A stretch of 64,000 nt of DNA, taken from positions 79,575 to 143,574 of the forward strand of contig RFQR01000001.1 in the NCBI GenBank assembly GCA_009924895.1, given 5' to 3'. Shown here piece by piece: positions 3,061 through 50,720 of this stretch. This DNA comes from a bacterium (lineage in GTDB: Bacteria; Patescibacteriota; Minisyncoccia; Phycocordibacterales; UBA2100). The notes under the pieces were generated by a model. The model saw only the letters and a program-made list of their open reading frames with translations, had not been told where the DNA came from and did not search any database. Made by a program: the position numbers and the translations under genes. Position 1 is the stretch's first letter. Each line of letters starts with the position of its first letter.

Positions 3061-3699
3061 TTACTCAAACCTCGTCAAAACTTTGTCCAAGATCTTGCTC
3101 CCACCTCCTGCCTCGAGCACTGCAGCATACAACGTCTCGAAGTTCGCTTTGTCTTTGTAAAATGCAAAGTCATGGCTCGCTCGCCGGATCTCTTCTCGGA
3201 GCGTTGTTGCACTCTCAAAATCCGCAACCTTGATGTTGTGCGCTACTGCCCACGATCGCAAAATCGGGAGATTGTTTTGCGCGATTAGTTCATTCGCAAG
3301 AGCAAGAGTGAATGCTAGCCGTCGATCGTCTGCGTTGAGGGTATTGAAATCTGATGTCTTGTTTGCCGTGTTTGGCGTTGTTGGGGCTTTCGGCGCGGAT
3401 GAGAAAATTGCCTCGCTTTTTGTGCTTTCAACGATCGTGAGGCCAGTATTCGGGCTTTGTGAGGGCATTATCGACGAGGGCGAGGTAACAGCAAACAGGA
3501 AAAAGAAAGCGAGAGCCGCAGTGCTGAAAATTGCCATTACATGCAGTCGAGATGGGGTGCGTAACCACGCGGGACGTATGAGACCGATCACAAGTCCTGC
3601 AAGAGAAAGTAAGGCGAGAGCCGCAAAGATGTTGTACATAGAAGTTCGCTTGATTGCTAAACAACCGTGCGAACTCTTTCCACACAAAAAGCCCGCCAC
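3061..3699 (-). CDS. Membrane-anchored hypothetical protein; the real start is probably the Met of MYNIFAALALL at about 3639
   Basis: A hydrophobic N-terminal helix is followed by a Ser/Thr/Pro-rich linker and a soluble domain. Confidence 0.45.
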   Translation of the reverse strand: MAGFLCGKSSHGCLAIKRTSMYNIFAALALLSLAGLVIGLIRPAWLRTPSRLHVMAIFSTAALAFFFLFAVTSPSSIMPSQSPNTGLTIVESTKSEAIFSSAPKAPTTPNTANKTSDFNTLNADDRRLAFTLALANELIAQNNLPILRSWAVAHNIKVADFESATTLREEIRRASHDFAFYKDKANFETLYAAVLEAGGGSKILDKVLTRFE

Positions 3700-3704
3700 G
3701 GGCT
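3686..3704 (-). terminator. Hairpin followed by a T-run on the minus strand, giving an intrinsic-terminator-like element
   Basis: The hairpin is agcccg-cca-cgggct with aaaaa immediately 5' on the plus strand, which is a T-run on the minus strand. It lies between the divergent 3061-3699 gene and the recombinase gene. Confidence 0.35.
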
Positions 3705-3921
3705 ACGGCTTGCGCCGTACGCACCAGTTTCCCGGTGCGGCAGAACATGCGACCTCATGACGGGTTCTTTATGCATGTTCTGCCTCCCACAACCATGCCG
3801 AGTCGTTGTTCGATTCGGTTTAGGTCGCCGCCCTTCCGGGCCGATATTTAGTTGTTCTTACATCGTACAGGATTTTTGCGATTTACTCCACTTCGTCGCT
3901 GATTTCCGCTATGATCACTAT

Positions 3922-5601
3922 ATGCAACTCAACACCCCTGCCGACCTCCTCGCGGCACTCAAAGATCTCCACACTCCCATCAATGACCAAGCCTCGATCA
4001 AGGAATATCGCTACGTTGTTTACATCCGAAAATCCACGGATCAAGAGGAAAAACAGGTGCGCTCACTGGCCGACCAGATACTCGAATGCAAAGAATATGC
4101 CGAGCGCGTAGGTATCACGATCCGCGACGAAGACATCGTGCAAGAAGCAGAATCTGCGAAAGAGCCGGATATCCGACCCAAGTTCCGCAAGATGATCAAA
4201 GACATCCAAGAGAAGGGTAAATACGACGGCATCCTCGCATGGCATCCCGATCGCTTGGCCCGCAACATGAAAGATGCGGGAGAAATCATCGACCTTCTCG
4301 ACAAGGGCACGATCAAGGATCTCAAGTTCGTGAGTTTTTCGTTTGAGAAAACAACCGCGGGCAAAATGCTCCTCGGCATCATGTTCGTTATGTCCAAAGA
4401 GTACAGCGACAAACTTTCCGACGACGTATCACGCGGGAACAAGCGGAGCATCGAGGAAGGCAAATACATCAACAAAAACAAACATGGCTATTTCAAGGAC
4501 GCGAATCAGCACATGCAGCCCGACGGCGAAAACTTCCTTTTGATCAAGCAAGCGTTCCGTATGCGCGTCGAGGGTAAGACGATGAAAGAAATATCGGAGT
4601 TTTTGAACACAAATCACTACATGAAATGGCACACAAGCAAACCTCGCGCGATATTCAAGTGGAATCCACAGACGATTGAAAAGACACTCAAAGATCCCTC
4701 ATACACCGGAATCGTCATGTACGGAAAATCCCATCGGGTAGCATTCGTGAATCTAATCGATGCGTACGGATTCCAACCGATGATCTCGGTGTCGGAGTTC
4801 ATGCAAATCAACAAACTTACACATGAAAAACAACTTTTCAAACTTGCTCGAAAGTATCGCAAGGGTGAAGACGTGAAAGCCGATCTCATGCGCGGCATGG
4901 TGATCTGCGACGGGTGCGGCGAGGCCATGACCGCAAGTATCACGCCCAAGAAAACACCACACGGCGTTACGCGCTATTTCTACTACCGCTGCGAATCAGA
5001 GGATTGCGAACGAAAACCACGATCGATTCGCGCAAAAGTCGTGCTCGCTCACATATTCGATTTTCTCGACACGCATCCGTTCTCCACGAAGGAAGCGTAC
5101 GAACATTATGCAAAAGAGATGGAGCGTGTGGCTGCCGAGCGCAATCGTACTGCTCAACAACTCTCACAGACACTCCGCCTCGAAAGAGGCCGGATTGAGG
5201 ATCACTTGATCACAACGAAAGAGTACTTGATCGAAGAAAAGGACGAAACGATCAAAAAATCATACAAGAGTGATGTGCTTCGCTACGAGGCCCGGATCAA
5301 AGAACTCAAGGGCGAGATCGAGAAAGCGCAGACCGTCGTAGCACGTCAAAAGGCCGCGATTCTGACATACGAAAACTTCCTCGAACTCATGGAAAAAATG
5401 CCTAAAATCCTACGTTCTATGCAGAATATGCAGGAGATGGATTTCCTGATCCGCAAAATCTACACGAACTTTACAATCGAGGGAAAAAACGTAGCAAAAT
5501 CAACGCTTTCTGCGCCATTCGATGCGCTTTACACCCTCAAAATCTCAAACGGTGGGCGCGGGGAGACTCGAACTCCCAAGCCTTTCGGCACACGCTTCTG
5601 A
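3922..5601 (+). CDS. Large serine recombinase (resolvase/invertase-type catalytic domain plus recombinase, zinc-ribbon and coiled-coil C-terminal region)
   Basis: MQLNTPADLL...YRYVVYIRKSTDQEEKQVRSLADQ shows the catalytic Ser motif. A Cys cluster (CDGCGE...CESEDC) and a long coiled coil are present. The track ORF begins earlier, but the Met at 3922 fits the domain start. The last roughly 16 codons lie inside the tRNA-Leu gene. Confidence 0.9.
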   Translation: MQLNTPADLLAALKDLHTPINDQASIKEYRYVVYIRKSTDQEEKQVRSLADQILECKEYAERVGITIRDEDIVQEAESAKEPDIRPKFRKMIKDIQEKGKYDGILAWHPDRLARNMKDAGEIIDLLDKGTIKDLKFVSFSFEKTTAGKMLLGIMFVMSKEYSDKLSDDVSRGNKRSIEEGKYINKNKHGYFKDANQHMQPDGENFLLIKQAFRMRVEGKTMKEISEFLNTNHYMKWHTSKPRAIFKWNPQTIEKTLKDPSYTGIVMYGKSHRVAFVNLIDAYGFQPMISVSEFMQINKLTHEKQLFKLARKYRKGEDVKADLMRGMVICDGCGEAMTASITPKKTPHGVTRYFYYRCESEDCERKPRSIRAKVVLAHIFDFLDTHPFSTKEAYEHYAKEMERVAAERNRTAQQLSQTLRLERGRIEDHLITTKEYLIEEKDETIKKSYKSDVLRYEARIKELKGEIEKAQTVVARQKAAILTYENFLELMEKMPKILRSMQNMQEMDFLIRKIYTNFTIEGKNVAKSTLSAPFDALYTLKISNGGRGETRTPKPFGTRF

Positions 5602-5634
5602 GACGTGAACGGTTACCAATTTCGCCACGCGCCC
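5553..5634 (-). tRNA. tRNA-Leu (anticodon CAG), type II with a long variable arm
   Basis: The reverse complement folds as a cloverleaf. The acceptor stem is GGGCGCG/CGCGCCC with discriminator A. There is a 3-bp D-stem with a GG loop. The anticodon stem CACGT/GCGTG carries the loop CU-CAG-AA. The variable stem-loop is GCC-GAAA-GGC. The T-arm is GGGAG-TTCGAGT-CTCCC. Confidence 0.9.
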
Positions 5635-5894: not shown

Positions 5895-8113
5895 CGCGAG
5901 AACCAGGAGCGAATCCATTGGGTAATACGCGAGAGGAATGAATCAGGTACGGCATTTACCGCAGTTGCTGTCTGTTCGAGGGGTGGTGTTTCTGGAGATG
6001 CGACAGGTTGTGTTTGAACCACTTTTAATTTTTTCTGTACGGCAAGTTTCTTTCCAATTTTTTTAGGAATAACCAGATTCGTTGATGACGCTACGGACGA
6101 GGTGCTTGATGCCGCTCCTACGAGAGGAGTGCTTGTTGCATCTTCTGGTGACGTAGTTGCGATTGCCAGATTTGCTGTGACAATCGTTGACGTGGTAGTG
6201 CTGGTCGCCATGGTTATGACTGGTGAGGTACTCGATACTGGTGTTCCGCCACCCCCTACAGCTACAGGAATCGGAAACGTCTGCAATACGGTGATCCAGC
6301 TACGGCCCGATGCTGCGGTCAAGGCATAACTCGTACTCCAGAGACGATTATCAACGCTGTCAGTTGTAGGACGAACCCCGCCATCAGGTTGTTGCGCAGC
6401 AGCAAGTGCGTCTTTCGGCAATGCACCGGTAGAAGTTTTCCAGGCGCTTTCGGGCGACGCGTGCGCTTCGCTAAAGGAGTTCAAAGCGGTCATGACCCAG
6501 CTCGTTGAATCGATGTTCCCCCAGCCGCCATCACTGTTTTGTACTGATTTAAGGTAACCAATCGATTTCCCGAGTCCTCTGTTTACTCCCGGCACCGCAA
6601 AAAGAGCGCCAAGCGCCTGTGTCGCCGCCGCAGTAACGTCGGGACTATTTTCCCATGAGCCGTTCGGACTTTGCTTTGAGAGTACGAACGCTGCAACTTT
6701 TTGAATAATGTCGTCGTTTTGAGTGTAACCTGCGTGTTCGAGCACGATGAGTCCGAAAATATCGTCGTTCACGAGTGATGGATCGCCGATTTGTGTACCA
6801 TCAAATGCAGCAATGATTGGTTTTATAACGTTGCGCGTAGACCCTTTGTAGGGGTCAATACCGAGTGCCATAAGTGCCATCGCATGACGCATATAGTCTG
6901 TCACACTCCCAAAATCACTATCGGGTTGCGGATTGAGCATAAATGCTTTGATTGCATCAGTTGGGCCTCTGTTTGCCGCAATACCGATTGCCGCCCAATC
7001 TGAATATAGTAGTGATCCAAACGAACCGTTTTGCTTTTGCTTGCTTGAAAGAAAGGCAAGTGCACCTGGTACATCAAATACCTTGGGCCCACTTGTTCCA
7101 GCAGGTGTTCCACCGCCGCCTGTTGCCTGAGACACCATGAGAGGAGTATTGGGAAAGTAGCCAGTATTTTGAATACCGGCGGCATAGGTGCCAGCAATAT
7201 TCACGATAACGGTTGCCACGCCGTTTGTATCAGTTGTTGAGGTTGCGAACTCGGTGGCGATAAAATTGCTATCGAACTGCACTACACCCACGACTTCATT
7301 CGGTGCAGGAACGTACGTGCCAGTTGCAGGATCGTACCGTTTAGCGGTGATAGTGACTGACTGTCCGGTTTGTATGCTTGAAACCGAGGTGGTGACTTGC
7401 CACGGTGATCCAAAAATGAGATAGACGGTGTCATTACCAGAAACGGTGTACGAGTCAATACCAACAGATGGAAATGTGTTGTTTACCGCATACGTCCAGT
7501 TGTTGCAATCAGGTGAAGTGGTTGCGGTAAAAGTAATACAGTTGAGGAGAAACGAACTAAAAGATGGGTAGTACTGAAGATCGCTCACCGCGAAACTGCT
7601 GTCAGTGGTATCGAGTGATGAGAGAAGCGCCAACACACTGCGCGCAGGTACGTTGTATGTGGTCGTAGTTCCTGTTGGAGTGATAGATACATCTGGTGTG
7701 GTAGTCCCTGGAAGTGTAAGAGTCACTGGCCCTACCGTCTGAGAGCTGCCACGGATGGTCAATGTGACAGTCTCTGGTGTAGGCACAGGTGGTGTGTTGT
7801 CGACAATGATAACGAGTGAGGATGTAGTAGTGCTGTTACCAGATACGTCTGTTGCGGTCCAAGTAACGGTAGTGGTACCAACAGGGAAAGTAGTAGGTGA
7901 GTAGGTAACTGTTGGATTTGGGTCAGTATCATCGGTTGCAGTTGCAGGTACTAAAAGTGGCGAAGCAGGAAAGGTGCTGGTGGCGAAGGTCTGGTCAGCA
8001 GGCGCTGTTATGGTCGGTGCGGTTGTGTCTGGGGTCGGTACTGGAAGGGCATGCGCTGATGGTGAGTATAAAAAGGGAAGGACAATAAGGACACTCAGTA
8101 GTATTTTTTTCAT
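5891..8113 (-). CDS. Secreted surface protein with an N-terminal HYR-like domain, prenyltransferase/alpha-alpha-toroid repeats and a Thr-rich C-terminal region
   Basis: A signal peptide (MKKILLSVLIVLPFL) is present. TVTWTATDVSGN is HYR-like. Repeated QxxDGGWG-type motifs occur (LSKQSPNGSWEN, VQNSDGGWGN, QQPDGGVRP). Confidence 0.7.
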   Translation of the reverse strand: MKKILLSVLIVLPFLYSPSAHALPVPTPDTTAPTITAPADQTFATSTFPASPLLVPATATDDTDPNPTVTYSPTTFPVGTTTVTWTATDVSGNSTTTSSLVIIVDNTPPVPTPETVTLTIRGSSQTVGPVTLTLPGTTTPDVSITPTGTTTTYNVPARSVLALLSSLDTTDSSFAVSDLQYYPSFSSFLLNCITFTATTSPDCNNWTYAVNNTFPSVGIDSYTVSGNDTVYLIFGSPWQVTTSVSSIQTGQSVTITAKRYDPATGTYVPAPNEVVGVVQFDSNFIATEFATSTTDTNGVATVIVNIAGTYAAGIQNTGYFPNTPLMVSQATGGGGTPAGTSGPKVFDVPGALAFLSSKQKQNGSFGSLLYSDWAAIGIAANRGPTDAIKAFMLNPQPDSDFGSVTDYMRHAMALMALGIDPYKGSTRNVIKPIIAAFDGTQIGDPSLVNDDIFGLIVLEHAGYTQNDDIIQKVAAFVLSKQSPNGSWENSPDVTAAATQALGALFAVPGVNRGLGKSIGYLKSVQNSDGGWGNIDSTSWVMTALNSFSEAHASPESAWKTSTGALPKDALAAAQQPDGGVRPTTDSVDNRLWSTSYALTAASGRSWITVLQTFPIPVAVGGGGTPVSSTSPVITMATSTTTSTIVTANLAIATTSPEDATSTPLVGAASSTSSVASSTNLVIPKKIGKKLAVQKKLKVVQTQPVASPETPPLEQTATAVNAVPDSFLSRITQWIRSWFSR

Positions 8114-8140
8114 GATAGTAATGACGTTAATAATGAATAA

Positions 8141-8635
8141 TTATTTCTGTGTTTCGTACCTCCACTCGATGCTGTCGCCAGGAGCGACCATTTTTTGTGA
8201 AGCACCAAGATCTGATGAGGTTCCATTGACGTACAGGAACCAATACATGCCGTTTTCATTTTTTCGACCCGCAACAGAGTCGACGAAGTCTCCTAATGAT
8301 GGGTACGCACGAGAAGTGAAGTTTATTTTACCGATACTACGCTCGTATTGCATGGTCTCGAGTACGGTCTGGTTCTTTTTAGCGACCATTCGCACGATAG
8401 TTGGTAGCTCTGAGGCCTGTGTTACTTCTTTTTGAGGCGAGGTAATTCGAGTAGGAAGTGGCGATGGCGCGATGCGTGGTTGGTTCTCGGTCGAGGTAAT
8501 TGTTTCTTTTTTCTGGAGCGCAGGGGCGAGATAGGCATCTTGAGTGTATTGATAGGGTTGCTGCGATGAAAGTGCGCCAGAGCCGATGCCGACGATAAAA
8601 AGTACAAGAACAATGAGAAGTATTTTTTGGTTCAT
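8141..8635 (-). CDS. Signal-anchored protein with a DUF4430-like C-terminal domain
   Basis: The start was chosen at MNQKILLIVLVLF. The C-terminus GMYWFLYVNGTSSDLGASQKMVAPGDSIEWRYE resembles DUF4430. Confidence 0.5.
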   Translation of the reverse strand: MNQKILLIVLVLFIVGIGSGALSSQQPYQYTQDAYLAPALQKKETITSTENQPRIAPSPLPTRITSPQKEVTQASELPTIVRMVAKKNQTVLETMQYERSIGKINFTSRAYPSLGDFVDSVAGRKNENGMYWFLYVNGTSSDLGASQKMVAPGDSIEWRYETQK

Positions 8636-40599: not shown

Positions 40600-41090
40600 A
40601 GAAAAAAAATAAAAAAACAGTGGCAAAAAATGCAAAACCAAAGTGGGTTGCGGTTTCGGGTGGTTTTGACCCCATCCATATCGGGCACGTCCGCATGTTT
40701 CAACAAGCGCGCAAATATGGCGATAAACTTGTTGTGATTTTAAATAACGATAATTGGCTAGAGGCGAAAAAAGGATATGCATTCATGAATGAAAAAGAAC
40801 GCGCCGAACTCATCAGTGCATTTCCAGAAGTCGACAAGGTGGTGATTACTTCACATATAAAAAACGACTCAGATCGTAGTGTGTGTCGTGAGCTTGCTAA
40901 ATTAAAGCCAGCAGTATTTGCCAATGGTGGGGATCGAAAGCCAGATGGTGATCCGGTTCCCGAAGTTGAGCTCTGCAGTAAGCTCGGTATTAAGATGGTC
41001 TACAACATCGGCAAGGGAGGTAAGGTGCAGTCATCCTCCTGGCTGGTAAATGCTGCAATCGAGAACGCAGCAAGAAACAGGAAAGGCTAG
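40596..41090 (+). CDS. Cytidylyltransferase-like nucleotidyltransferase (TagD/RfaE-domain-II-like)
   Basis: SGGFDPIHIGHVRMF matches the HxGH motif. Confidence 0.7.
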   Translation: MKKKNKKTVAKNAKPKWVAVSGGFDPIHIGHVRMFQQARKYGDKLVVILNNDNWLEAKKGYAFMNEKERAELISAFPEVDKVVITSHIKNDSDRSVCRELAKLKPAVFANGGDRKPDGDPVPEVELCSKLGIKMVYNIGKGGKVQSSSWLVNAAIENAARNRKG

Positions 41091-41136
41091 TGGTCAACTC
41101 TAGCGGCAGGGCGGGGGGTCTGATAGCATACAGTGC

Positions 41137-43470
41137 ATGTCACTTGAAAAAGTATTGCGCGCTGTGGTCTTAACTGGAGTCTTTGCGCTCCCTTTTATTC
41201 CTTTTATTGTCTCATCAAACCTCTTCTTCCCGTTTATTACCGGTAAGAATTTTGCATTTCGTTTATTTGTTGAGATTGCAGTAGGAGCGTGGCTTGCGCT
41301 CGCTTTTGTACATCCGCAGTATCGACCGCGCCGCTCGTTTGTATTAGGTGCGTTCGTGTTTTATGCAGCCGCACTCCTCCTTTCTGCACTCTTTAGCTTC
41401 AATCCGGTTCGCAGTATCTGGAGTAATTACGAACGCATGGAGGGGTGGATAACGATTGCACACCTGGTTGCGTATCTTACCGTTTGTTTGTCGGTCATGA
41501 CGAGCGAGCGTTTGTGGCGCAATTGGTGGATGGTCTCAATGCTCGCGTCTATCGGCATCGGTCTCTTTGGGGTATTGCAGCTCATGGGAGCTCTTACCAT
41601 CAACCAGGGGGGTATTCGTCTCGATGCGACTCTTGGTAATGCGACCTATCTTGGCGTATACATGCTCTTTCACATCTTCATTGCCGTGCTCTATCTCGTT
41701 CGAGAAGGTGGTGAGTACTGGAATACGACCGAAAAAGCGGTTGTCGGTGGAGCTGCGCTTCTTTGGCTGCTCTCGGTCTTGAGCCTCCTTCAAGGTCAAC
41801 TTTCAATTGGTAAACCATTCTTTGTCCAATTTCTTCTCGCTGGTTTTGGTTTTTTGCTAGTACTGACTTTGAGACGATCGTATGCACTCTCAGCACTTAT
41901 CGCTCTTGCAGCGACCATTCTATTTTTCACCGCGACCCGTGGTGCAATGGTGGGTCTTGCAGGTGGAGCGTTTCTCGCGGCGATTACCTATGTTGTGCTT
42001 GAGCCCTGCTCGCGAATGGCATGGCGAACTGGTGTTGCAGTTATCGCAGCTCTTGCGCTTGTTGGAATGTTTTATCTCGGCCGTGAATCGACGTTTGTAC
42101 GAAATATCGAGCCACTCCAGCGACTTGCTACCATGTCGATTTCTGATAGCAGCTTTACGGGTCGTTTGGTGAACTGGAGTATGGCATGGAATGGCGTTAA
42201 GGAACGTCCGATTCTCGGTTGGGGTCAAGAAAACTACGGCCTCGTCTTTAACAAATACTTTGATCCGCGCATGTATGGGCAAGAGCCGTGGTTTGATCGA
42301 GTCCATGAAGTCGTACTTGATCAGCTTATCGCGGGCGGTATGGTAGGACTTCTTGCATACCTCTCGCTGTATCTCGCGGCACTATACTGTCTGTGGCGCA
42401 GTGGCGCGTTTGACTCGGTTGAGAAAAGTATTCTCACTGGTCTTCTTGCGGGATACTTTTTCTATCTCGTGTTTACGTTCGACAATATAACGAGTTGGGT
42501 GTTGTTTGTCTCTCTCCTTGCATTTATTGCAGTGCGTGCGGCGCTTGCACAACAATCGCGCGTCGTATTTACTTCCGGCGGTATGCCACTGCAGTCGCTT
42601 CCTATGGTGGCGGTTGTTGTATCGGTTGCCACGGTCGCAAGCATTTGGTACCTCAATGGTCCTGCGTATCTCGCTAATCGCGAATTAATTCAAGCGGTCA
42701 CGCCGCAGCGCGGAGGCGTTATCGTAAACTACGATCACTTTACCAAAGCGCTCTCGTATAACGCTCTCGGAATGCAAGAAATTCGTGAGCACCTCGCACA
42801 GGGCACGGCGCAGCTTGCAAACGCACAAAGTGTCTCTGAGGACGTCAAGAAGAAGTTCTATGATTTGGCAACCGGCGAGATGCTTACTATGCAAAAGCAG
42901 GTGCCGCTTGAGGCGCGCTTCCCGCTCTTTTTGGGCATGGTCTACACTGCGTATGGCCAGTTTGATTTGAGTGGGCAAGAGTACCAGAAAGCGCTCGCAA
43001 TCTCTCCAAAGAAAATTGATATCTTGTTCCAAGCTGGCGCGAACGCCTTGAACGCAAAGAAGAATGACCAAGCGCTTGCGTACTTCAAACAAGCGTATGA
43101 GCTGGTGCCGAACAATGATGATGCTCGCACGCTCTACGTCGCGATGGCAATTCAAGTCGGTAAACTTGATCTTGCAAAAGAGCTTACTGTGCCGCTCATG
43201 GCAAGCGACAAACTGTACCAGTCGCGTGTCATGAATGCCTATGCGGCAGGGAAGTATTACAAAGAAGTGATTGCGATTGTTCAAAATCACATCAAGTTGA
43301 AACCCTATGATCCGCAGGCCCGTTTCACGCTGGCAGCGGCATACTATCTGGCAGGCGATAAACAAACAGCAATAAAGACACTGCAAGAGGCTGCGCAGCA
43401 GTTGCCAGACATTGCTCAACAAGCGAACCAGCTTGTCGATCAAATCAAAAAAGGCACGATAAAGATTTAG
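41137..43470 (+). CDS. O-antigen-ligase/Wzy-like membrane protein fused to C-terminal TPR repeats
   Basis: It has about 12 TM helices and a TATRGAMVGL loop (Wzy_C-like). The C-terminal roughly 250 aa have TPR-like AxxY periodicity. Confidence 0.7.
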   Translation: MSLEKVLRAVVLTGVFALPFIPFIVSSNLFFPFITGKNFAFRLFVEIAVGAWLALAFVHPQYRPRRSFVLGAFVFYAAALLLSALFSFNPVRSIWSNYERMEGWITIAHLVAYLTVCLSVMTSERLWRNWWMVSMLASIGIGLFGVLQLMGALTINQGGIRLDATLGNATYLGVYMLFHIFIAVLYLVREGGEYWNTTEKAVVGGAALLWLLSVLSLLQGQLSIGKPFFVQFLLAGFGFLLVLTLRRSYALSALIALAATILFFTATRGAMVGLAGGAFLAAITYVVLEPCSRMAWRTGVAVIAALALVGMFYLGRESTFVRNIEPLQRLATMSISDSSFTGRLVNWSMAWNGVKERPILGWGQENYGLVFNKYFDPRMYGQEPWFDRVHEVVLDQLIAGGMVGLLAYLSLYLAALYCLWRSGAFDSVEKSILTGLLAGYFFYLVFTFDNITSWVLFVSLLAFIAVRAALAQQSRVVFTSGGMPLQSLPMVAVVVSVATVASIWYLNGPAYLANRELIQAVTPQRGGVIVNYDHFTKALSYNALGMQEIREHLAQGTAQLANAQSVSEDVKKKFYDLATGEMLTMQKQVPLEARFPLFLGMVYTAYGQFDLSGQEYQKALAISPKKIDILFQAGANALNAKKNDQALAYFKQAYELVPNNDDARTLYVAMAIQVGKLDLAKELTVPLMASDKLYQSRVMNAYAAGKYYKEVIAIVQNHIKLKPYDPQARFTLAAAYYLAGDKQTAIKTLQEAAQQLPDIAQQANQLVDQIKKGTIKI

Positions 43471-43472
43471 AT

Positions 43473-43907
43473 ATGACCGAGCGGATGCTCTGTGCAGGTG
43501 GCATCGTCCTTAATACCGAAGGCAAGCTCGCACTTGTTATGAGTGGTCCGAAGGACGATGCGTTCTGGGGTTTCCCGAAAGGGCATGTTGATGCTGGTGA
43601 GGACGTGAGGGGAGCGGCGCAGCGAGAAATAGAAGAGGAGACAGGACTCACGCACCTTACGTTTGTGCGCGAGCTTGGTTTCTATGAGCGATTTCGCGGA
43701 ACAAAAGGCGGGGGAGATGACACGAGCGAGCTCAAAGAAATTCACATGTTTCTGTTTCGTACCGACGAAATGGTACTTGCGCCGAACGATGAGTGGAACC
43801 CCGAGGCGCGCTGGGTTAGCGTCGATGAAGCGCTTGCACTCATCACGCATCCAAAAGATCGCGCATTTTGTGAGCGTATTCGTGGATTGATAGAGGCTGG
43901 AAAATAG
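43473..43907 (+). CDS. NUDIX hydrolase
   Basis: GFPKGHVDAGEDVRGAAQREIEEETGL is the Nudix box. Confidence 0.8.
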   Translation: MTERMLCAGGIVLNTEGKLALVMSGPKDDAFWGFPKGHVDAGEDVRGAAQREIEEETGLTHLTFVRELGFYERFRGTKGGGDDTSELKEIHMFLFRTDEMVLAPNDEWNPEARWVSVDEALALITHPKDRAFCERIRGLIEAGK

Positions 43908-43926
43908 AGTACATTTCTTGGTACTG

Positions 43927-44000
43927 TCGGGGTAGCTCAGCCGGTTAGAGCGAGCGTTTCATAAGCGCTAGGTCGAGAGTTCGAGTCTCTCCCCCGACAC
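43927..44000 (+). tRNA. tRNA-Met (anticodon CAT), elongator type; a tRNA-Ile2 with lysidine cannot be excluded
   Basis: The cloverleaf has acceptor GTCGGGG/CCCCGAC with discriminator A, D-stem GCTC/GAGC, anticodon stem AGCGT/GCGCT with loop TT-CAT-AA, and T-arm GAGAG-TTCGAGT-CTCTC. No CCA is encoded. Confidence 0.9.
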
Positions 44001-44441
44001 AAAATGAGAGACCAAATCGGTTTCGGTGGTTTTTTCTGCGGTGGCGGGCAGAAAAAACCACGGATTTTCGGGCACGCCGCGCGCTTCGCGCGCGACGAGG
44101 GTGAGGTTCGAGCCGAAGATTTTTTGGAGGGCTGCTTTTTTGGAGGGGAGGTCATTAGATTGTGCCGCTTCGTCCAATAACAAAGCGTCTTTTATCCATT
44201 TCCGCATAGGTTCGAGCCACGCGGCGGCGTTCCGTTCCAAGCGCAAGATATTCTCTTGTGCCGACCTCTTTTGAGACATCAACTCGCGCTTGCGAGATAG
44301 ATATTCTTCTCTCTCAAGATCTTGCTCCACAAAGAGGTCGGTGATTCGGGCGATTTTGCCGTCCAAATCATCAATCTTTGCCCGCATCGCTTGAACGGAC
44401 GCCGCCGTTTGAACGGCGTTAGCCGCGTCTTTCGTAGCCAT
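43968..44441 (-). pseudogene. C-terminal fragment (about 157 aa) of a large serine recombinase, with its 3' end inside tRNA-Met
   Basis: The coiled-coil tail ...LQKIFGSNLTLVAREARGVPENPWFFL aligns with the intact recombinase tail FLIRKIYTNFTIEGKNVAKSTLSAPFDAL. The last 11 codons are the reverse complement of the tRNA T-arm and acceptor, and the stop falls in the variable loop. No catalytic domain lies upstream. Confidence 0.6.
44027..44062. repeat. Perfect 14-bp inverted repeat with an 8-bp spacer, 27 bp downstream of the tRNA-Met 3' end
   Basis: The repeat is gtggttttttctgc-ggtggcgg-gcagaaaaaaccac. Confidence 0.75.
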
Positions 44442-44541
44442 ACGATCTAACTCTTCTGCCCACTCGCGCGGAAAGTGAATTACTACTGAAATTTACGACA
44501 GAAAAAGTAAAGAATATGGAAACACACTTGAAAGATTACAA

Positions 44542-44811
44542 ATGGAATACAAAGAGCATATTACAGCAGACACAGACTATAAAAACACTTTAATATCAGT
44601 AATAAATCTGGCAAAGAACGCAAAGACCTTGTTTGAAAGTTCTGAACCAAAGGAAAAACAGCAAATTATTAAATATCTTGTTCAGAACTACCAAGTAGAT
44701 GGAAAAACTCCATATTTTACAATAACAAAACCATTTAATTGGCTACTTAAAATAGCAGATGAACCAACTTGGCTGGCACATATGACGACCATCTCTCAGA
44801 AGAAGGTATAA
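44542..44811 (+). pseudogene. AT-rich C-terminal fragment (89 aa) of another serine recombinase, on the opposite strand
   Basis: QIIKYLVQNYQVDGKTPYFTITKPFNWLLKI aligns with FLIRKIYTNFTIEGKNVAKSTLSAPFDALYTLKI of the intact recombinase. GC is about 30%. No N-terminal catalytic region is present. Confidence 0.5.
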
Positions 44812-45338
44812 AACAAGTTCGACCTCTTGCAGCAAAGATGTCGCAGAAAGGAATACAGAAAATATTCTCTAGTCCACTTATTCGCGCACGAGAAACAGCA
44901 ACTATTCTTGCGGACTCGATTGACTGCTCGGTTGAAACTGTTGACGATTTGAAAGAACGAAACCAGTACGGTATTTTGGCTGGAATAAAAAAAGAAGAGG
45001 CGCAAGAGCGGTATCCTGAGCTTGTTGAGAATCTGAAAGATCGCATGAATATTATACAAGGCGCGGAATCATACGAGAACTTTCGTAACCATGTGGTTAG
45101 TGGGATAGAAACCGTGCTCGCGAAATCTGAGCAAGAGAATCTTCAGATCGTAGCTGTTGTCTGGCACGGCGGTCCGATGCGTGTCCTCTTTCGCGATTAT
45201 TTGAAATGGGGAGATCTCACGACGACAGAGGACTGCTGTTGGGCAGAATTTGGTATTGAACAAGGTGTCTGGAGGACTACCGTCTCAGAAGGCATCACGT
45301 TTGCTTTTGATACTGAAATAAGCAATGACGTCAGTTAG
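44769..45338 (+). pseudogene. Histidine-phosphatase (PGAM-family) gene lacking the N-terminal RHG catalytic motif
   Basis: The ORF aligns from the G..D.PLse.G..QA region onward (GTYDDHLSEEGIKQV). An in-frame TGA immediately upstream and the AT-rich recombinase fragment replace the roughly 20 residues that should carry RHGxT. Only a TTG start is available. Confidence 0.55.
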
Positions 45339-45413
45339 TTAGGAACAAGGTGCCCCAGGCACAGTAAGTGGCAATCACTTTTGCATCCTTGAAAAATTGG
45401 GTACTATAGAGGC

Positions 45414-46031
45414 ATGGCTAAATACATCATCAGTGGAATTATTCTTATCATACTTGCAGTGGGTGGGGGATATTACCTTCAAAATAAAAATGCCATCGCA
45501 TCTGCACCGGTTCCTGTAATCGAGCAGCCGCAACCGTTTGTGGCATCGACGAGTACCTACGCATCATCGTCATATTCAATCGTCTATCCAAACGAGTTTA
45601 TAAAAAATGAGAACTATGTGAACGATGCGTTTGGTCCAAAAAAATTGATTCATGGCGTGCAGTTCACTATTTCAGAGTCGATGGCAACTGGTACGAATCT
45701 TGCTATGAGCGATACCGGGGTTTCGGTAGAGCAGCTTCCACGCGCACAAAAATGCTCTGGCGATATTTACCTCAAAGAGAACGTGAAAGCGCAAACCGTG
45801 AATGAAAATGGTGTTGAATATTCTCTCGCGACCACGACGCGCGAAGTAGGCGGAGCAGTCGTTGAAGAAATGGTATACACACTCACTGCAAGTAAGCCCT
45901 GCACCGCACTGCGGTACCGAATCACGCTTCTCGACCTGGGTCCTGCAGCGACGAGCACTCGTGAATACGACCGCACCGCACTCCTCAAAGAATTCGACAG
46001 TATTCGTTTCTCGCTCAAGCTCGCGCAGTGA
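45414..46031 (+). CDS. Signal-anchored hypothetical protein
   Basis: The N-terminal helix is MAKYIISGIILIILAVGGGYY. It is separated from the next open frame only by an in-frame TGA. Confidence 0.4.
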   Translation: MAKYIISGIILIILAVGGGYYLQNKNAIASAPVPVIEQPQPFVASTSTYASSSYSIVYPNEFIKNENYVNDAFGPKKLIHGVQFTISESMATGTNLAMSDTGVSVEQLPRAQKCSGDIYLKENVKAQTVNENGVEYSLATTTREVGGAVVEEMVYTLTASKPCTALRYRITLLDLGPAATSTREYDRTALLKEFDSIRFSLKLAQ

Positions 46032-46187
46032 ACCACAGTCGTTGGAAACTACAACAACGGTTCCGACGAGAACCTCACCTTTACGGTCTGTACTGGCGAC
46101 ACTGTTTCCTCTGGCGCCAAAACCATCACCATCGGTGCTGCAACCAAGCTCATCACGAACCCTTCAAGTTCCGGTTCCTATCGCATC

Positions 46188-46820
46188 TTGATCGGGGGTA
46201 CACAAGACAACTCAGGTGAGACTCGCGTTGCTATCTTGAGTAACGTCACAGTTACTGCTTCTGTCGACACCTCGTTCACATTCACGGTTGCTGGTGTGGC
46301 AAGTGGTGCATCAGTAAATGGTGATACTACTTCAACAACAACCGCAACCGCAATCGGCTTCGGTACTCTTGTTCCGACTGTTCCCGTGATTGCTGCCCAA
46401 GATCTCACGGTCACCACAAACGCAGTAAACGGTTTCTCGGTGACCGTTCAGGAAGACCAAAACCTTACCTCGGCAAATGGTGCAGACATTGATCTTTTCA
46501 AAGACGGAAACGAAAATGTAGCACCAACGACATGGACATCACCAACAAACACACTCGGTCAAGAAAAGACGTACAGCCACCTTGGTATCTCAAGTGAAGA
46601 CGCTACGCTTACCGCAGGTGATGAGTTCGGTACCTCGCTCTATGCGGGTAACTTCGGATCAACGACGCGTCAGGTTTTTTATCACAACGGCCCCGCAAAC
46701 GGTTCAACCGCAAACATCGGTGCTACTCGCGTCGGCTACAAGATTGAGATCGCATCCCTCCAGGAAGCTGCGAATGACTACATTAACCGCATTACGTACG
46801 TTGCAACTCCTGTTTTCTAA
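46188..46820 (+). CDS. Thr/Ser-rich beta-strand surface protein. The reading frame is open from 46032 with no ATG, and 46188 is a TTG
   Basis: It has TFTFTVAGV-type beta-rich repeats. The frame is continuous with the upstream ORF apart from a single TGA at 46029-46031. Confidence 0.4.
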   Translation: MIGGTQDNSGETRVAILSNVTVTASVDTSFTFTVAGVASGASVNGDTTSTTTATAIGFGTLVPTVPVIAAQDLTVTTNAVNGFSVTVQEDQNLTSANGADIDLFKDGNENVAPTTWTSPTNTLGQEKTYSHLGISSEDATLTAGDEFGTSLYAGNFGSTTRQVFYHNGPANGSTANIGATRVGYKIEIASLQEAANDYINRITYVATPVF

Positions 46821-46876
46821 ACCACAGGTGCACTCTCTCGTGTAAGTTTTTTAAACGAGGGTGATGTGGTACAACT

Positions 46877-47959
46877 ATGGAACACAGACGAACAGGTATG
46901 AGACCACTTACTCTCGCAGTTGCTTCTCTTTTTCTCACAGCTATTCTGTTTGGGGGTACAACTGTGTTTGCACAAGTATCAGAGGGCCTACAGATGAAGC
47001 CCGCAATCATCGAGGGAAAAATCAATCCGGGAGATTCTGCAACGTACTCAATAAAAGTAACCAATCTCTCTTCTGAGGAGCGTACGCTCTATTTGAGTCC
47101 CCAAAATATTGAAGGTGTCAATGAAAAAGGTTTGCCGCGGTTCGTGCAAGAGGGCGTACCGACCGGTTATGAACTCAGTTCATGGGTAGTTATTTCAGAT
47201 GATGTGGTGGTTTTGAAACCAAACAAGACAAAGGTGATTTCCTTTGAAGTACGGGTTCCTAAGGATGCGGCCCCGGGCGCGCACGTCGGAGGCATTTTTC
47301 TCGATGCTCGTGCACCGCGTTTGCGCACATCCGGATCAGGTATTAGTGTAAAAGTGGGAACACTGATTAGTTTGCGTATCTCAGGAGATATTATCGAAGA
47401 GGCTCGCATGCGGGAATTTTCAACTGAGCACACGGTATATAGTTCACCCAAGATCACCTTTAATTCGAAAGTGGAGAATCTTGGTAATGTGCTGCTTCGA
47501 CCACAGGGACTTATCGAGATTACTGACATGTTTGGAAAGCAGGTTGCAAACATTCCCGTCAATGATGCAGGCGCCTCGGTATTTCCAAAGACACAAAAAA
47601 TTTATGCGACTGAATGGAACTATCAGCGATTTACCTTTGGTCGCTACCAAGCAGTAGTGAGTCTTGTCTTTGGTGATGAGGCGCGCAAAACAATCTCAAG
47701 TACGTCATCATTTTGGGTCTTGCCAGCGCAGCCGATTCTTATAGCCTGCGGCACGCTCCTGGGGTTCTTGCTCCTCTTGTACTTCTTTGTGCGTATGTAT
47801 TTGCGCCGCAAATTCCGCGAAATGGAGCTCAGTGGCCGCAGTTCTGAGTACCATTTGCGCCGCAGCTCTCAGACTGCTTCGCGGCTCGTCGGTGTCGCGC
47901 TCTCAGTCTTCTTTGTATGCGTTCTGATTCTCGTCTTACTCTTTCTCTTGTTCGCGTAA
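46877..47959 (+). CDS. Cell-surface protein with a DUF916/DUF3324-like architecture: signal peptide, extracellular domain and C-terminal TM anchor
   Basis: There is a signal peptide, a central domain and a C-terminus LIACGTLLGFLLLLYFFVRMYLRRK TM segment followed by a second hydrophobic tail. Confidence 0.45.
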   Translation: MEHRRTGMRPLTLAVASLFLTAILFGGTTVFAQVSEGLQMKPAIIEGKINPGDSATYSIKVTNLSSEERTLYLSPQNIEGVNEKGLPRFVQEGVPTGYELSSWVVISDDVVVLKPNKTKVISFEVRVPKDAAPGAHVGGIFLDARAPRLRTSGSGISVKVGTLISLRISGDIIEEARMREFSTEHTVYSSPKITFNSKVENLGNVLLRPQGLIEITDMFGKQVANIPVNDAGASVFPKTQKIYATEWNYQRFTFGRYQAVVSLVFGDEARKTISSTSSFWVLPAQPILIACGTLLGFLLLLYFFVRMYLRRKFREMELSGRSSEYHLRRSSQTASRLVGVALSVFFVCVLILVLLFLLFA

Positions 47960-47963
47960 CGGT

Positions 47964-48407
47964 TTGCCTAATGTGGGCGGGGGAGATACTGTTATTAGTA
48001 TGACTATCGCGAAGCGACTCACTCTGATGCAGGCGGCGCTTTTGTGTGCGGCATCACTGTTTCTCCTTGTCGCACTCCTTCTTTCAACTCCAGCGCATCT
48101 CGCGTCGTCTTCTCGCACGATGCTTGCGCAAGTAGTTGGGCTCTCCGCGGGTGTCATACCCAATAGTGATAACATGCTCGCCGCACAGTTTGCCGCAAAA
48201 GAAAAGGAGCTGGCAGAGCGCGAAGCAGAGCTTTCCTCGCGCATGCAATCGACTTCGTCAGAATCACTCGCAACCACCATAGCAAGCATCAGTCTCGGTA
48301 TGAGTTTGTTTTTGTTTGTGCTTTTGGTGACGCATCTTATATATGATCGCCGTAGAATACTGCAAGCGCCTCCAGCGCTTGCCGTCGATCTTCGCCGCAA
48401 AGGGTAG
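47964..48407 (+). CDS. Membrane protein (two TM helices flanking a coiled-coil segment)
   Basis: The hydropathy pattern supports this; no motif was recognised. Confidence 0.35.
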   Translation: MPNVGGGDTVISMTIAKRLTLMQAALLCAASLFLLVALLLSTPAHLASSSRTMLAQVVGLSAGVIPNSDNMLAAQFAAKEKELAEREAELSSRMQSTSSESLATTIASISLGMSLFLFVLLVTHLIYDRRRILQAPPALAVDLRRKG

Positions 48408-48576: not shown

Positions 48577-49724
48577 GTGTCCGTCGGGATGAGTACCGAA
48601 ATAATACCCACCATGCCAGTTCGCTTTAATGGCCTGCCTTCAGGACTTATCCCGGCAGGAAACAACGTTATCGAGGTATCACTCAATACGAATCGCTTTG
48701 CCACGTGCCGATGTGCAACGACTTCAGGCGTTTTGTACGACGATATGACCTATCAATTTTCTCCCACCGTCGGTACCTCGTTTTATCGCGTTATAACCGG
48801 GCACCAAGATGACACGACCTATCATTATTATGTGCGCTGCATGGACACCAATGGCATAAAAAACGATGATGACTATGATATTTCGTTCAAACTCTTGCCA
48901 ACTCCCGATAGTGATTCATCGATTCTCGGGAAACCGGGTGCTGATGGTTCGGGCGGCGCGGGCGCGATTCCATACGGTAGTCCCTCGCTCTAGCAGGCAC
49001 AAGTCACGATAGGCGGGCGCAGCAGCCCGAATGCAACAGTCGTCTTTTAAAAGATGGCAAGCAAGCGGGAACGATTGCAGCAAAGCGAGATGGTTCATTT
49101 ACCTATACGATCACAAACTTAGAGTGCGGTATTTATACGTTCGGCGCCTATGCAGTAAATGCCGCGGGTCAAAAATCAGGCACATACTCGTCAACCCTGA
49201 CACTCGGACAAGGTACGCGCAACAGCATCGAAGGTGTCATCCTGCCGCCAATAATGGCGATACAAAAAAATCCGCTCACAATTGGCGAGTCGGTACGTGT
49301 TTCAGGCGAAAGCCTCCCAGGTAGTTCTATTGAGCTTGAGGTTCTACCGCAAGAATCATTTGACACCGATCTCACAGAGGTTTTCGTCGCGACGACCACC
49401 CAAGCTCCTCTTGATGCGCCCGTTACCTGGAGTATCACTATTCCTTCGTCGCAGCTTGCAAAGGGATCGTATCGGTTCCGCGCACGAACTTCTTCTTCGG
49501 ATGCGGTGCGAAGTACCTACACGACGCTTTTTGTCGGCGAAGGGGTAGTAGCAGGGGAGAGCAGTCTTCGAGTTGACTTAAACCGTGACGGCAAGATGAA
49601 TCTTGTCGACTTTTCGATTATGCTCTCAGGGTGGGGGAAGAGGGGCGTCGATGCGGATGTCAATGACGATGGTATGGTCAATCTTGCCGATGTCAGTATT
49701 CTTCTCTTCAATTGGACTGGATAA
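48577..49724 (+). pseudogene. Frameshifted secreted protein: N-terminal domain, Ig-like domain and C-terminal dockerin-type repeats
   Basis: The frame of 48577-48993 stops at TAG. The adjacent frame is open from 48981 with no start codon and encodes LKDGKQAGTIAAKRDGSFTYTITNLECGIYTFGAYAVNAAGQKSG (Ig-like), then the track ORF 49254-49724 with dockerin repeats DLNRDGKMNLVDFSIM / DVNDDGMVNLADVSILL. Confidence 0.5.
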
Positions 49725-49783
49725 CGTATGTTCATACTCGAATATGTGAAAGCTAACAGAGCCCTTTTTTTGTTGCAATTGGC

Positions 49784-50254
49784 ATGTCTTTTGCAGGCAG
49801 TGTGTGGGCGTACCGCGCCCTATCGCTCCCGCTTCACGGTGATACGGTAGCTCTCTTTTCAGAAACGGTGCAACGAGAAGATGGAACTAAGGCGCGCATG
49901 CTCCAGCGCCATGCACGCATCACTATTCTCTACTGGTGGGCGTCGTGGTGTCCCTATTGCGCCGATGAGTTTCAGCAGCTTCAAAAGGTAAAAAAGCGCT
50001 ATGGCAGTGCTGTTGAAGTTATCGCCCTTAATCGCGGAGAGTCGCTCGAAGTTATTCATTCATTTACCGCCCCGTTTCGATCAAATGGTATTGTATTTCT
50101 CAATGACGCAGATGATAGCGTGTTCAAAAAAATTGGCGGGTATGCTATGCCCGAAACGCTTTTTATTTCGAGAAAAGGGCAGATCATTGCCCATCAGCAC
50201 GGCCCCTCTGGAGAAGGTGAGCTCGAAGCACTTGTTGAACGCGAGTTGCGCTAA
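49784..50254 (+). CDS. TlpA/ResA-like thiol:disulfide oxidoreductase (thioredoxin fold)
   Basis: It has a WCPYC active site and a TlpA-like length. Confidence 0.8.
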   Translation: MSFAGSVWAYRALSLPLHGDTVALFSETVQREDGTKARMLQRHARITILYWWASWCPYCADEFQQLQKVKKRYGSAVEVIALNRGESLEVIHSFTAPFRSNGIVFLNDADDSVFKKIGGYAMPETLFISRKGQIIAHQHGPSGEGELEALVERELR

Positions 50255-50305
50255 GACCGTCCTTGCATTTTTTTAAAAGGTTGTTAGCGTGAAGAAGGAA
50301 GGGCA

Positions 50306-50608
50306 TTGGTCGAACCTCAGGAGGTGATCATGAGAAGCTCGGTACAATCCAAAACTCGTCGCAAAGCGCGGCAGATTCCGAAACAAATTGATCTTGCAGC
50401 TCTTGGCAACGGTGAGCTGTCATACATCAGACAAGTTTCAGCCGAAAAAGCACGTGAAGAGTTTCCGAGCATCGAAAAAATGCCGAAAGATATCGATCTC
50501 TTTGTCCTCCACGGAGCAGATGGAACACCGCTCGCGCTTACCGACACGAAACAAGCTGCAATCGGGTATGCAATGGGCGGTGACCTTGAGATTCGGATGT
50601 TGCACTGA
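50306..50608 (+). CDS. Small hypothetical protein (DUF1150-like pattern LFVLHGADGTPLAL)
   Basis: A 100-aa ORF with weak family resemblance only. Confidence 0.3.
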   Translation: MVEPQEVIMRSSVQSKTRRKARQIPKQIDLAALGNGELSYIRQVSAEKAREEFPSIEKMPKDIDLFVLHGADGTPLALTDTKQAAIGYAMGGDLEIRMLH

Positions 50609-50655
50609 GAACTAGAGAGCGCCGGGAAACCGGCGCTCTGTCTCTTATCAAAAAC

Positions 50656-50684
50656 TTGCTTTTTTTCTTTTTATATTGTATAAT
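50656..50684 (+). promoter_or_regulatory. Sigma-70-type promoter for the helicase gene
   Basis: TTGCTT is followed by a 17-nt spacer and then TG-TATAAT (extended -10). Confidence 0.5.
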
Positions 50685-50720
50685 AGAAAAATTGAAGGTA
50701 CGCCCTCAATACTAATTGTC

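Follow-up and report, generated by a model that had tools for sequence, protein, structure and literature searches.

Directly downstream of a complete tRNA-Met gene in a Patescibacteria-type bacterium with a tiny genome lie two orphan open reading frames (ORFs) on opposite strands and a histidine-phosphatase gene that lacks its catalytic start. What are the two ORFs, and how did the phosphatase lose its 5' end? An earlier note on this DNA had read the site as an integration hotspot with repeated insertions and deletions, one of which truncated the phosphatase. We examined the locus within a stretch of 64,000 nucleotides (hereafter the window) and find that it is the remains of two unrelated integrative elements driven by large serine recombinases (LSRs), now ordinary, non-functional and decaying debris.

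Two truncated recombinase genes beside tRNA-Met

ARAGORN placed tRNA-Met(CAT) on the plus strand at 43926-44000, where it had been proposed. Fragment A follows on the minus strand at 44001-44474 and holds the P arm and the C-terminal ~160 codons (coiled coil and tail) of a family-A LSR, whose first ~353 residues are gone. Its ORF (43968-44441, 157 aa, in a frame open back to 44492) ends within the tRNA, as the earlier note had said, and overlaps the last 33 nt with 10 codons (VSGERLELST) and a TAG, not with the 11 codons it had counted. The identification of this ORF as a serine recombinase tail without a catalytic domain held up. Fragment A is 70% identical (E 1e-74) to residues 354-514 of L125, a 524-aa protein that carries Resolvase, Recombinase and Zn_ribbon_recom domains, and it starts 7 residues past the end of the zinc-ribbon match in that protein. 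We found 75 homologues of fragment A. Its AlphaFold model is a long antiparallel coiled coil, for which Foldseek returned generic coiled coils only, none at E<=1e-3. Neither the protein nor a 31-mer of fragment A matched IMG/VR.

Fragment B (44479-44777, plus strand) comprises the last ~100 codons of a family-B LSR. It lies in an AT-rich ORF at 44542-44811, present as described, whose frame is open from 44479. The GC content of fragment B is 30.0% and its GC3 is 21.6%, in a genome of 48% GC; 49 ORFs of the window have a GC content of 48.3 +/- 2.6%, which places fragment B 7 SD under the mean. An exhaustive phmmer search gave 954 matches, in agreement with the proposal that this ORF is a second recombinase tail. 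Three proteins of ~500 aa with all three LSR domains (P0199, P0236 and P0243) match fragment B with E values of 4e-16 to 1e-12, and tblastn with residues 395-498 of P0199 against fragment B gave E 1.7e-20. We recovered no full-length copy of element B, and neither the protein nor a 33-mer of fragment B matched IMG/VR. A profile of the family-B tail found one phage contig there, in which a GIY-YIG nuclease, and not an LSR, carries the domain.

Pfam searches with both fragments gave sub-threshold noise only and no Resolvase (PF00239), Recombinase (PF07508) or zinc-ribbon (PF13408) domain. Homology to the full-length enzymes starts at residue 354 of 524 for fragment A and at about residue 395 of 504 for fragment B, and the fragments abut, leaving no upstream remnant. 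Judged by descent, both are C-terminal remnants of LSRs and not functional enzymes. The earlier note had also aligned the second tail with that of the window's intact LSR (3667-5601). This part did not stand, and a three-tail alignment that includes 5300-5601 lacks statistical support. BLASTP of the fragments against the intact LSR and against each other returned nothing significant (E 0.004, coiled-coil noise). On this sequence evidence, the A tail, the B tail and the tail of the intact LSR belong to three different tail families.

The two truncated genes meet head to head at 44475-44478. Homology to family A reaches ~44474-44480, homology to family B begins at 44479, and GC falls from 51% to 31%. 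Since this junction has neither filler sequence nor a detectable site, we infer that it is an illegitimate deletion, separate from the event at the phosphatase. Such an abrupt drop of ~20 points at 44475 could be expected if an AT-rich piece had been mis-joined between unrelated contigs during metagenome assembly. However, the identical arrangement and junctions occur in 13 contigs from independent sequencing runs, so that the locus is not a chimera, and they are shared by two haplotypes whose SNPs differ on either side of the junctions; an assembly artifact is effectively refuted. With each indel counted once, the haplotypes differ at 19 positions across 41000-48000, and 12 of the 19 fall within the 825 bp of 44370-45194. 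A second variable patch is present at 49540-50700, so that haplotype divergence is no clean signal of neutrality.

We also considered a single element with two outward-facing ends. This was rejected, since in real family-A elements the inverted copies have 97-100% identity, while between A and B similarity is absent and the GC contents lie 24 points apart (that of element A is ~54%). Nor does the locus resemble an invertible segment with alternative C-terminal cassettes, as in the Mu G segment or a shufflon: the fragments have their N-terminal edges turned towards one another, a constant 5' part is lacking, no inverted repeat links A with B, and the tails are of different families.

Attachment-site cores at the fragment ends

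Fragments A and B each stop at the attachment-site core of their own element. For fragment A this is GTG, the reverse complement of C72-A73-C74 of tRNA-Met (43998-44000) and the core common to family-A attachment sites. The same end is found in L005, L088 and L086. The unrecombined family-A form is represented by L098 ('..GTGGTGAC|TCTATAC..GCTCGAACCTATTT'). The recombined forms are joined to tRNA-Glu (L005, L088), tRNA-Leu (L086) or, in the window, tRNA-Met, and all diverge directly after GTG. A crossover inside the T-loop was rejected, since attP and the tRNA-joined forms already differ at C72-C74. These comparisons suggest that only element A, of the two, used tRNA-Met, with a crossover within C72-A73-C74 that left the tRNA whole. 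The convergent arrangement of recombinase and tRNA does match that at the tRNA-Leu site, as had been claimed, but a repeatedly used hotspot is not what we see: fragment A alone is joined to tRNA-Met, and fragment B faces away from it.

The P arm of fragment A contains two hairpins, at 44008-44024 and 44026-44061, recognized by a terminator-like match and by folding (-29.8 kcal/mol, z -4.1). Both palindromes are kept in 64 distinct family-A P arms of differing sequence, with compensatory changes. Relatives of family A adjoin at least 18 tRNA species, and close relatives have P arms with an exact 31-mer in common. Cargo in their elements amounts to as much as ~10 kb, and internal orphan tails occur in them too. 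Most integrated elements have a second, complete, inverted attP that is 97-100% identical to the 3' end of the recombinase gene itself. A repeat of the tRNA-Met 3' end was found neither in the window nor in 49 family-A loci.

Fragment B points away from tRNA-Met, and at its att-proximal end it runs into the phosphatase. It ends at TTGGCTGG, as do its relatives L089 and L097. L089 is ~95% identical to the window over 44530-44777 and then diverges; it is the unrecombined family-B form ('..ACTTGGCTGG|GGTTGTTGGACGAGTTCAGAAC'). L097, a full family-B LSR of 504 aa, is joined to a tRNA-Asn gene with an encoded CCA ('..ATTTGGCTCC|CCGGGTTGGATTCGAACC'), and family B probably targets tRNA genes of this kind as a rule, at their CCA end. 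The window has the core ..ACTTGGCTGG at 44768-44777 and reads '..ACTTGGCTGG|CACATATGACGACC' across the junction, with phosphatase homology beginning at 44772-44775. The junction thus lies 0-2 nt from the switch point set independently by L097 versus L089.

Several features are common to both families. The att arms in relatives of both fragments are imperfect inverted repeats, and the attP arm sets a T-loop-like TCGAACC 4 nt farther from the core than the tRNA arm does. The native C-terminal ends ('..LYxxARTYF..' or '..LDxFRTLxW..') are conserved and are swapped on integration for a tRNA-encoded end (..G[ILF]EP.. or ..DSN[LQ]RP..). In the window we observe directly what the three pieces are, where they are truncated, that their junctions are reproducible and where these junctions lie relative to the att cores of relatives.

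A decapitated phosphatase and how it may have arisen

The histidine phosphatase (PGAM/PhoE-like; 44772-45338, plus strand) is a decapitated pseudogene. It matches PF00300 (histidine phosphatase superfamily, branch 1; E 5.3e-30) over profile positions 19-186 of 194 and lacks 17-19 N-terminal residues, including the RHG motif with the phospho-accepting histidine, which agrees with the earlier observation. In all 15 aligned homologues the protein starts MKIxFIRHGETTGDVEDRYGGDYDD and carries (I/A)RHG(E/Q/R)(T/S)TGD; the window copy has ..AGTYDD. The second conserved histidine (HGG) is retained in WHGGPMRV, which is invariant in the same alignment. No RHG-bearing N-terminal phosphatase fragment occurs elsewhere in the window. 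The in-frame TGA that had been placed just upstream was found at 44760-44762. TGA as a sense codon that would rescue the phosphatase start was rejected, since the same frame is closed by a TAA four codons farther upstream. In the second haplotype the gene also has a frameshift (a 1-nt deletion in the A7 run at 44987-44993) and a replaced invariant Gly, both among the differences in 44370-45194.

We found 105 homologues of the phosphatase, the nearest 55% identical, and the contexts of two of them were unrelated to the window. A synteny search across 185,579 species genomes, with the adjacent 777-aa Wzy/TPR protein as query, gave 80 loci (best identity 47%), and near none of them were the NUDIX gene, tRNA-Met or the phosphatase. 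Exact look-up of the 205-aa neighbour gave no record; that of the NUDIX neighbour gave only contigs with the same remnant and no empty site. None of these look-ups led to a relative in which the site is empty or the phosphatase is whole and syntenic, so that the state before insertion has to be reconstructed.

We reconstruct the history of the locus, including the sequence of steps, the part played by LSR-B at the phosphatase site and the deletion, as follows. Element A would have entered the extreme 3' end of tRNA-Met, leaving its LSR gene convergent, with a frame running into the tRNA. The attP core of element B (..TTGGCTGG) would have recombined with a site of weak resemblance, near codon 18 of a histidine-phosphatase gene already present, parting the RHG-encoding start and promoter of that gene from the rest. 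If the gene was disrupted in situ, the intact phosphatase would have read ..TAYGGNGG|CACATATGAC.. at this point. At least one illegitimate deletion would have followed, from codon ~354 of LSR-A to the ~100th-last codon of LSR-B. With it the two catalytic domains, the whole of the cargo and the phosphatase 5' piece would have been lost, and the tails would have come to meet head to head at 44475-44478. We give this overall scenario of two LSR elements, a phosphatase split by LSR-B at a pseudo-attachment site and a later deletion a probability of about 0.7. For the phosphatase itself, recombination by an LSR at such a secondary site most likely made the cut, not a random deletion, because the junction lies so close to the point at which attP and tRNA-joined relatives part. 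A deletion spreading from the tRNA site fits poorly with an att core of element B joined to the phosphatase. LSR integration at pseudo-attB sites is on record (PMC5937489).

It is unlikely that an ordinary illegitimate deletion beheaded the phosphatase, with B formerly joined to a tRNA or bearing its native end. An illegitimate deletion is evident 300 bp away, at the junction of A and B, and the phosphatase half-site fits a tRNA-type arm poorly: it has CGACC at +12-16, compared with TCGAACC at +14-20, a weak resemblance. Yet the endpoint would have to fall by chance within ~2 nt of a core that other loci fix independently, and any attached tRNA gene would also have been destroyed. We consider it about as improbable that B and the truncated phosphatase, perhaps with downstream genes, were made in another host or as cargo of element A and arrived ready-made. 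In favour of this, the phosphatase gene is rather rich in AT over its 5' half (GC 43%, GC3 34%), it has neither a close orthologue nor conserved synteny, and the cargo and orphan tails of family-A elements would suit such a history. The GC content of the whole gene (45.1%) nevertheless lies inside the range of host ORFs, its 3' half and the next gene have host composition, and downstream nothing points to a second element boundary.

Very unlikely, in our view, is that the fragments are domesticated small genes, for instance ones whose coiled-coil or tail products bind DNA or hinder related recombinases that enter the cell. Orphan tails are common, the GIY-YIG fusion on the phage contig presents the family-B tail as an autonomous domain, and the frame of fragment A (157-174 codons) is open in both haplotypes, the sole indel being in-frame. 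Many database orphans, though, are contig-end truncations or internal inverted attP copies. Both fragments start mid-domain at an arbitrary fusion point, the single ATG of fragment B leaves out 21 residues of the domain and its frame enters the phosphatase out of register, and non-synonymous changes and raised polymorphism run throughout the fragments. Off-target recombination by LSR-B followed by deletion is the history that we prefer.

Serine integrases at tRNA 3' ends

The locus accounts for one dead phosphatase gene and two orphan ORFs annotated 'hypothetical protein'. Its value is as a pointer to serine integrases that dock at tRNA 3' ends. We see an even chance that these remnants reflect an undescribed habit of Patescibacteria serine integrases. 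At least two LSR families would target the tRNA 3' terminus, with the near-universal T-arm (..TCGAACC..) as the proposed outer motif of the bacterial half-site; close relatives, as judged by the 31-mer in their P arms, would use at least 18 tRNA species without damage to the tRNA, swap their C-terminal end and keep an inverted attP; and the junction of B and phosphatase would be a natural off-target event. Textbook and database practice (Islander, reviews of IMEs) assigns tRNA islands to tyrosine integrases and protein genes to serine integrases, and the 2014-2017 literature credits tRNA targets to tyrosine integrases only. If the habit is real, searches for islands in candidate-phyla genomes would change, and these enzymes, a large environmental group, would supply compact integrases that naturally accept several targets and whose landing motif is predictable and present everywhere; the window would offer a natural off-target event with a visible cost.

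Full-length relatives of the fragments share the architecture of Resolvase, Recombinase, zinc ribbon and coiled coil with known serine integrases (phiC31, Bxb1, the A118/LI integrase, SPbeta SprA, TnpX/TndX); the window fragments, unlike these enzymes, retain none of the catalytic and DNA-binding core domains. The targets described for known serine integrases are protein-coding genes, whereas for the relatives of the fragments the docking point is the outermost 3' end of a tRNA gene. The trait of an attP that reaches into the 3' end of the recombinase ORF, which makes integration swap the C-terminal peptide, is also found in Mx8 and SSV1-like systems, while the recombinases here are of the serine class. 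The integrases of the Myxococcus phage Mx8 (intP/attP) and of the Sulfolobus SSV1 type are tyrosine recombinases with attP inside the integrase ORF.

The shift of ~4 nt between attP and attB arms in relatives of the fragments is comparable to the 5-bp shift of the zinc-ribbon motif (ZD-motif) for LI integrase (PMC3783163). In pseudo-attB integration by phiBT1 and phiC31, attP recombines with a weakly similar secondary site and the gene that carries it is disrupted (PMC5937489), as appears to have happened here; in the window it is the position of the junction that points to such an event, the element having since been almost wholly deleted. Islander-type islands likewise have an integrase gene beside the 3' end of a tRNA and decayed remnants piling up, but their integrases are of the tyrosine class and cross over within the tRNA body, in contrast to serine recombinases and C72-C74 here. 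Islander recognizes a tyrosine integrase beside an intact tDNA whose displaced fragment forms a direct repeat; the window locus, with neither such a fragment nor a repeat, instead has two serine recombinase tails, one of them joined to an intact tRNA-Met.

Two recombinase tails downstream of tRNA-Met

ARAGORN detects two tRNA genes across the whole window, tRNA-Leu(CAG) (5551-5634, minus strand) and tRNA-Met(CAT) (43926-44000, plus strand). Downstream of tRNA-Met lie a minus-strand open frame that contains fragment A (43968-44492; called ORF 43968-44441, 157 aa), a plus-strand open frame that contains fragment B (44479-44811; ATG at 44542, 89 aa), and a histidine-phosphatase ORF (44769-45338). 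GC content steps abruptly from ~51% to ~31% at ~44475. Thirteen contigs from independent sequencing runs share this gene order and these junctions in two haplotypes (99.7% identical), so an assembly chimera is excluded. NCBI holds a protein identical to fragment A, EBR66_00690 ("[bacterium]"), on a 631-kb contig, and the closest relatives of a flanking gene are from Kaiserbacteria/Paceibacterota (≤47% identity). The window and its neighbours are part of a Patescibacteria-type MAG.

Fragment A has no Pfam match and resembles the intact large serine recombinase (LSR) beside tRNA-Leu (3667-5601) at the coiled-coil level only. It matches residues 354-514 of a metagenomic protein of 524 aa at 70% identity (E 1e-74), and this protein carries Resolvase (10-153), Recombinase (178-270) and Zn_ribbon_recom (288-347) domains. 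This match to the C-terminal part of a three-domain protein shows that fragment A is the last third of an LSR, starting 7 residues past the zinc ribbon. Its AlphaFold model is a long antiparallel coiled coil; a fold search with this model returned nothing specific.

For fragment B, a word-indexed search recovered just the copy from this organism and a single fragment at 87% identity. An exhaustive phmmer search returned 954 relatives. Several are ~500 aa long and carry the full set of three LSR domains; their final ~100 residues align with fragment B. The earlier note had aligned this tail to the intact window enzyme; that alignment is not significant, and the tail belongs to a family different from those of fragment A and the intact enzyme. 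Fragment B is foreign because its GC content (30.0%; GC3 21.6%) lies 7 SD under that of window ORFs (48.3 ± 2.6%). On L096, an IMG/VR phage contig, a 225-aa protein (7710-8387) fuses a GIY-YIG (SegE-like) nuclease domain to a family-B tail domain with a native C-terminal end. This fusion indicates that the family-B tail is an autonomous module, possibly a DNA-binding domain.

Homology to family A reaches ~44474-44480 and homology to family B starts at 44479, with no filler sequence and no recognisable site at the junction. The breakpoints are non-equivalent: A is cut 7 residues past its zinc ribbon, B about 60 residues past its own. The junction is best read as an illegitimate deletion, which would have removed both catalytic parts, any cargo, the intervening DNA and the 5' piece of the phosphatase.

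Attachment cores and the truncated phosphatase

Tails of both families end in one of two ways, with a conserved native C-terminus (..LV(T/S)LYxxART(Y/H)F.. in family A, ..WLxxLDxFRT(L/C)xW.. in family B) or with one encoded by a reverse-complemented tRNA (..G(I/L/F)EP.., ..DSN(L/Q)RP..). The DNA identifies these as the unrecombined (attP) and recombined forms. In family A, the unrecombined locus L098 reads ..GTGGTGAC then TCTATACTACCAAGCTCGAACCTATTT, L005 and L088 (both at tRNA-Glu) read ..CTTGTGAC then CCCACCGGGAATCGAACC, L086 (tRNA-Leu) reads ..CTGGTG then GGCAGGGGGAGACTCGAAC, and the window (tRNA-Met) reads ..TTTTGTG then TCGGGGGAGAGACTCGAAC. The forms part ways directly after GTG, the reverse complement of C72-A73-C74, which places the crossover at the extreme end of the tRNA and leaves the tRNA intact. 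The earlier note was right in its observations except for small details, among them the tRNA-derived codons at the end of the fragment A ORF, which are present and number 10, not 11. These codons are mere read-through.

In family B, the full-length enzyme of L097 is joined to a tRNA-Asn(GTT) with encoded CCA (..ATTTGGCTCC then CCGGGTTGGATTCGAACC), its Trp codon being the reverse complement of CCA. The native form is found in L089 (..ACTTGGCTGG then GGTTGTTGGACGAGTTCAGAAC), a contig of 639 bp that shares ~95% identity with window 44530-44777. The window reads ..ACTTGGCTGG then CACATATGACGACC; it equals L089 through TTGGCTGG, and phosphatase sequence begins at 44772-44775. The phosphatase thus starts within 0-2 nt of the divergence point between L097 and L089, which was set independently of the window.

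Chance alone would seldom place a deletion endpoint at this switch point, and LSR recombination at secondary "pseudo-attB" sites is on record (PMC5937489). Together, the position and the precedent suggest, with a probability of about 0.7, that the element B recombinase joined its own attP to a weak look-alike site near phosphatase codon 18. The phosphatase arm bears only a weak likeness to the tRNA-type arm (CGACC at +12-16), as a pseudo-site should. The GC content of the phosphatase (45.1%, inside the host range) is consistent with a resident gene. Searches of phosphatase homologues, neighbour genes and synteny found no empty site or syntenic phosphatase orthologue. The proposed repeated use of tRNA-Met as a hotspot is not supported: the tRNA was used by A only, and B is oriented away from it and meets the phosphatase at the family-B core.

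The phosphatase is a pseudogene. Its PF00300 match begins at profile position 19; 15/15 aligned homologues (195-227 aa) start MKIxFIRHGETTGDVEDRYGGDYDD, and the window copy starts ..AGTYDD at 44772 behind in-frame TGA (44760) and TAA (44748) stops. No N-terminal piece occurs elsewhere in the window. The second haplotype has lost one nucleotide from the A7 run at 44987-44993, which puts the gene out of frame, and it carries another residue in place of the invariant Gly of GGDYDD. If each indel is taken as a single difference, 12/19 haplotype differences over 41000-48000 fall inside 44370-45194. A second variable patch, unrelated to the remnant, lies at 49540-50700 (13 differences across 1.16 kb, compared with roughly 1 per kb or less in other parts), which makes SNP density on its own weak evidence.

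Related elements at tRNA ends

A 31-mer from the fragment A P arm matched >119 JGI metagenome contigs, of which 80 loci were read (L099-L178). The tail adjoins a convergent tRNA in 49 matches, and the spacing between tRNA and 31-mer is constant. These tails lie next to at least 18 tRNA species (Thr, Glu, Tyr, Arg, His, Leu, Ile, Gly and Ala, with Met in the window). Full-length family-A matches number 43, and about 8 are truly truncated orphans beside tRNAs, like the window's. In L086, a DDE (IS4-type) transposase insertion cuts the recombinase gene in its zinc-ribbon region (272-1309 and 1327-2001), a further route to orphan tails at tRNA genes. Cargo near full-length or unrecombined recombinases (L097 1-7515; L098 749-1609; L088 2885-5190) is mostly defence-type: an N6/N4 methyltransferase with ResIII helicase/YagJ, a GmrSD-type restriction enzyme, and an Eco57I-type methyltransferase with a LexA-like repressor.

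At 28/48 loci with a full-length gene, including L132, L106, L119, L134, L118 and L148, the recombinase gene's final 120-170 bp recur as an inverted copy 0.12-10 kb upstream (3398-3549 versus 6516-6668 in L005). The copy is 97-100% identical to the gene's 3' end up to the att core. Outward of it lie the native P' arm and then the conserved downstream region, which makes the copy a second, complete, inverted attP. It could be an inversion switch, an alternative integration site or something else.

Two palindromes lie in the coding sequence at the recombinase gene's 3' end (44008-44024 and 44026-44061 in the window). Both are kept as structures at equivalent positions across 64 distinct family-A P arms, with clearly compensatory changes (e.g. 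GGTTTTTTCTGC/GCAGAAAAAACC, GGGCAGAGC/GCTCTGCCC, CGCGCGAAGCGCGCG/ACCGCGAAGCGGT). They may serve to terminate the convergent tRNA or to bind protein.

On the tRNA-Leu side, the tRNA 3' end (5553-5572) has an inverted copy at 1557-1576 (18/20 match), 4 kb upstream of the junction with the intact recombinase. This copy may be the second half-site (attL) of an element of ~4 kb. It is read through by an ORF of low GC (789-1586; 40%) that matches LAGLIDADG weakly.

Our literature search yielded no paper describing LSRs at tRNA genes in Patescibacteria, although later literature may exist; in the 2014-2017 literature, serine integrases were not known to target tRNA genes. The window remnant is ordinary debris from element types already known, and it points to serine integrases that target tRNA ends. 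In both families, the attP arm has a T-loop-like TCGAACC whose distance from the core exceeds that in the tRNA arm by 4 nt. This shift recalls LI integrase, in which the zinc-ribbon-domain motif is shifted 5 bp between attP and attB (PMC3783163).
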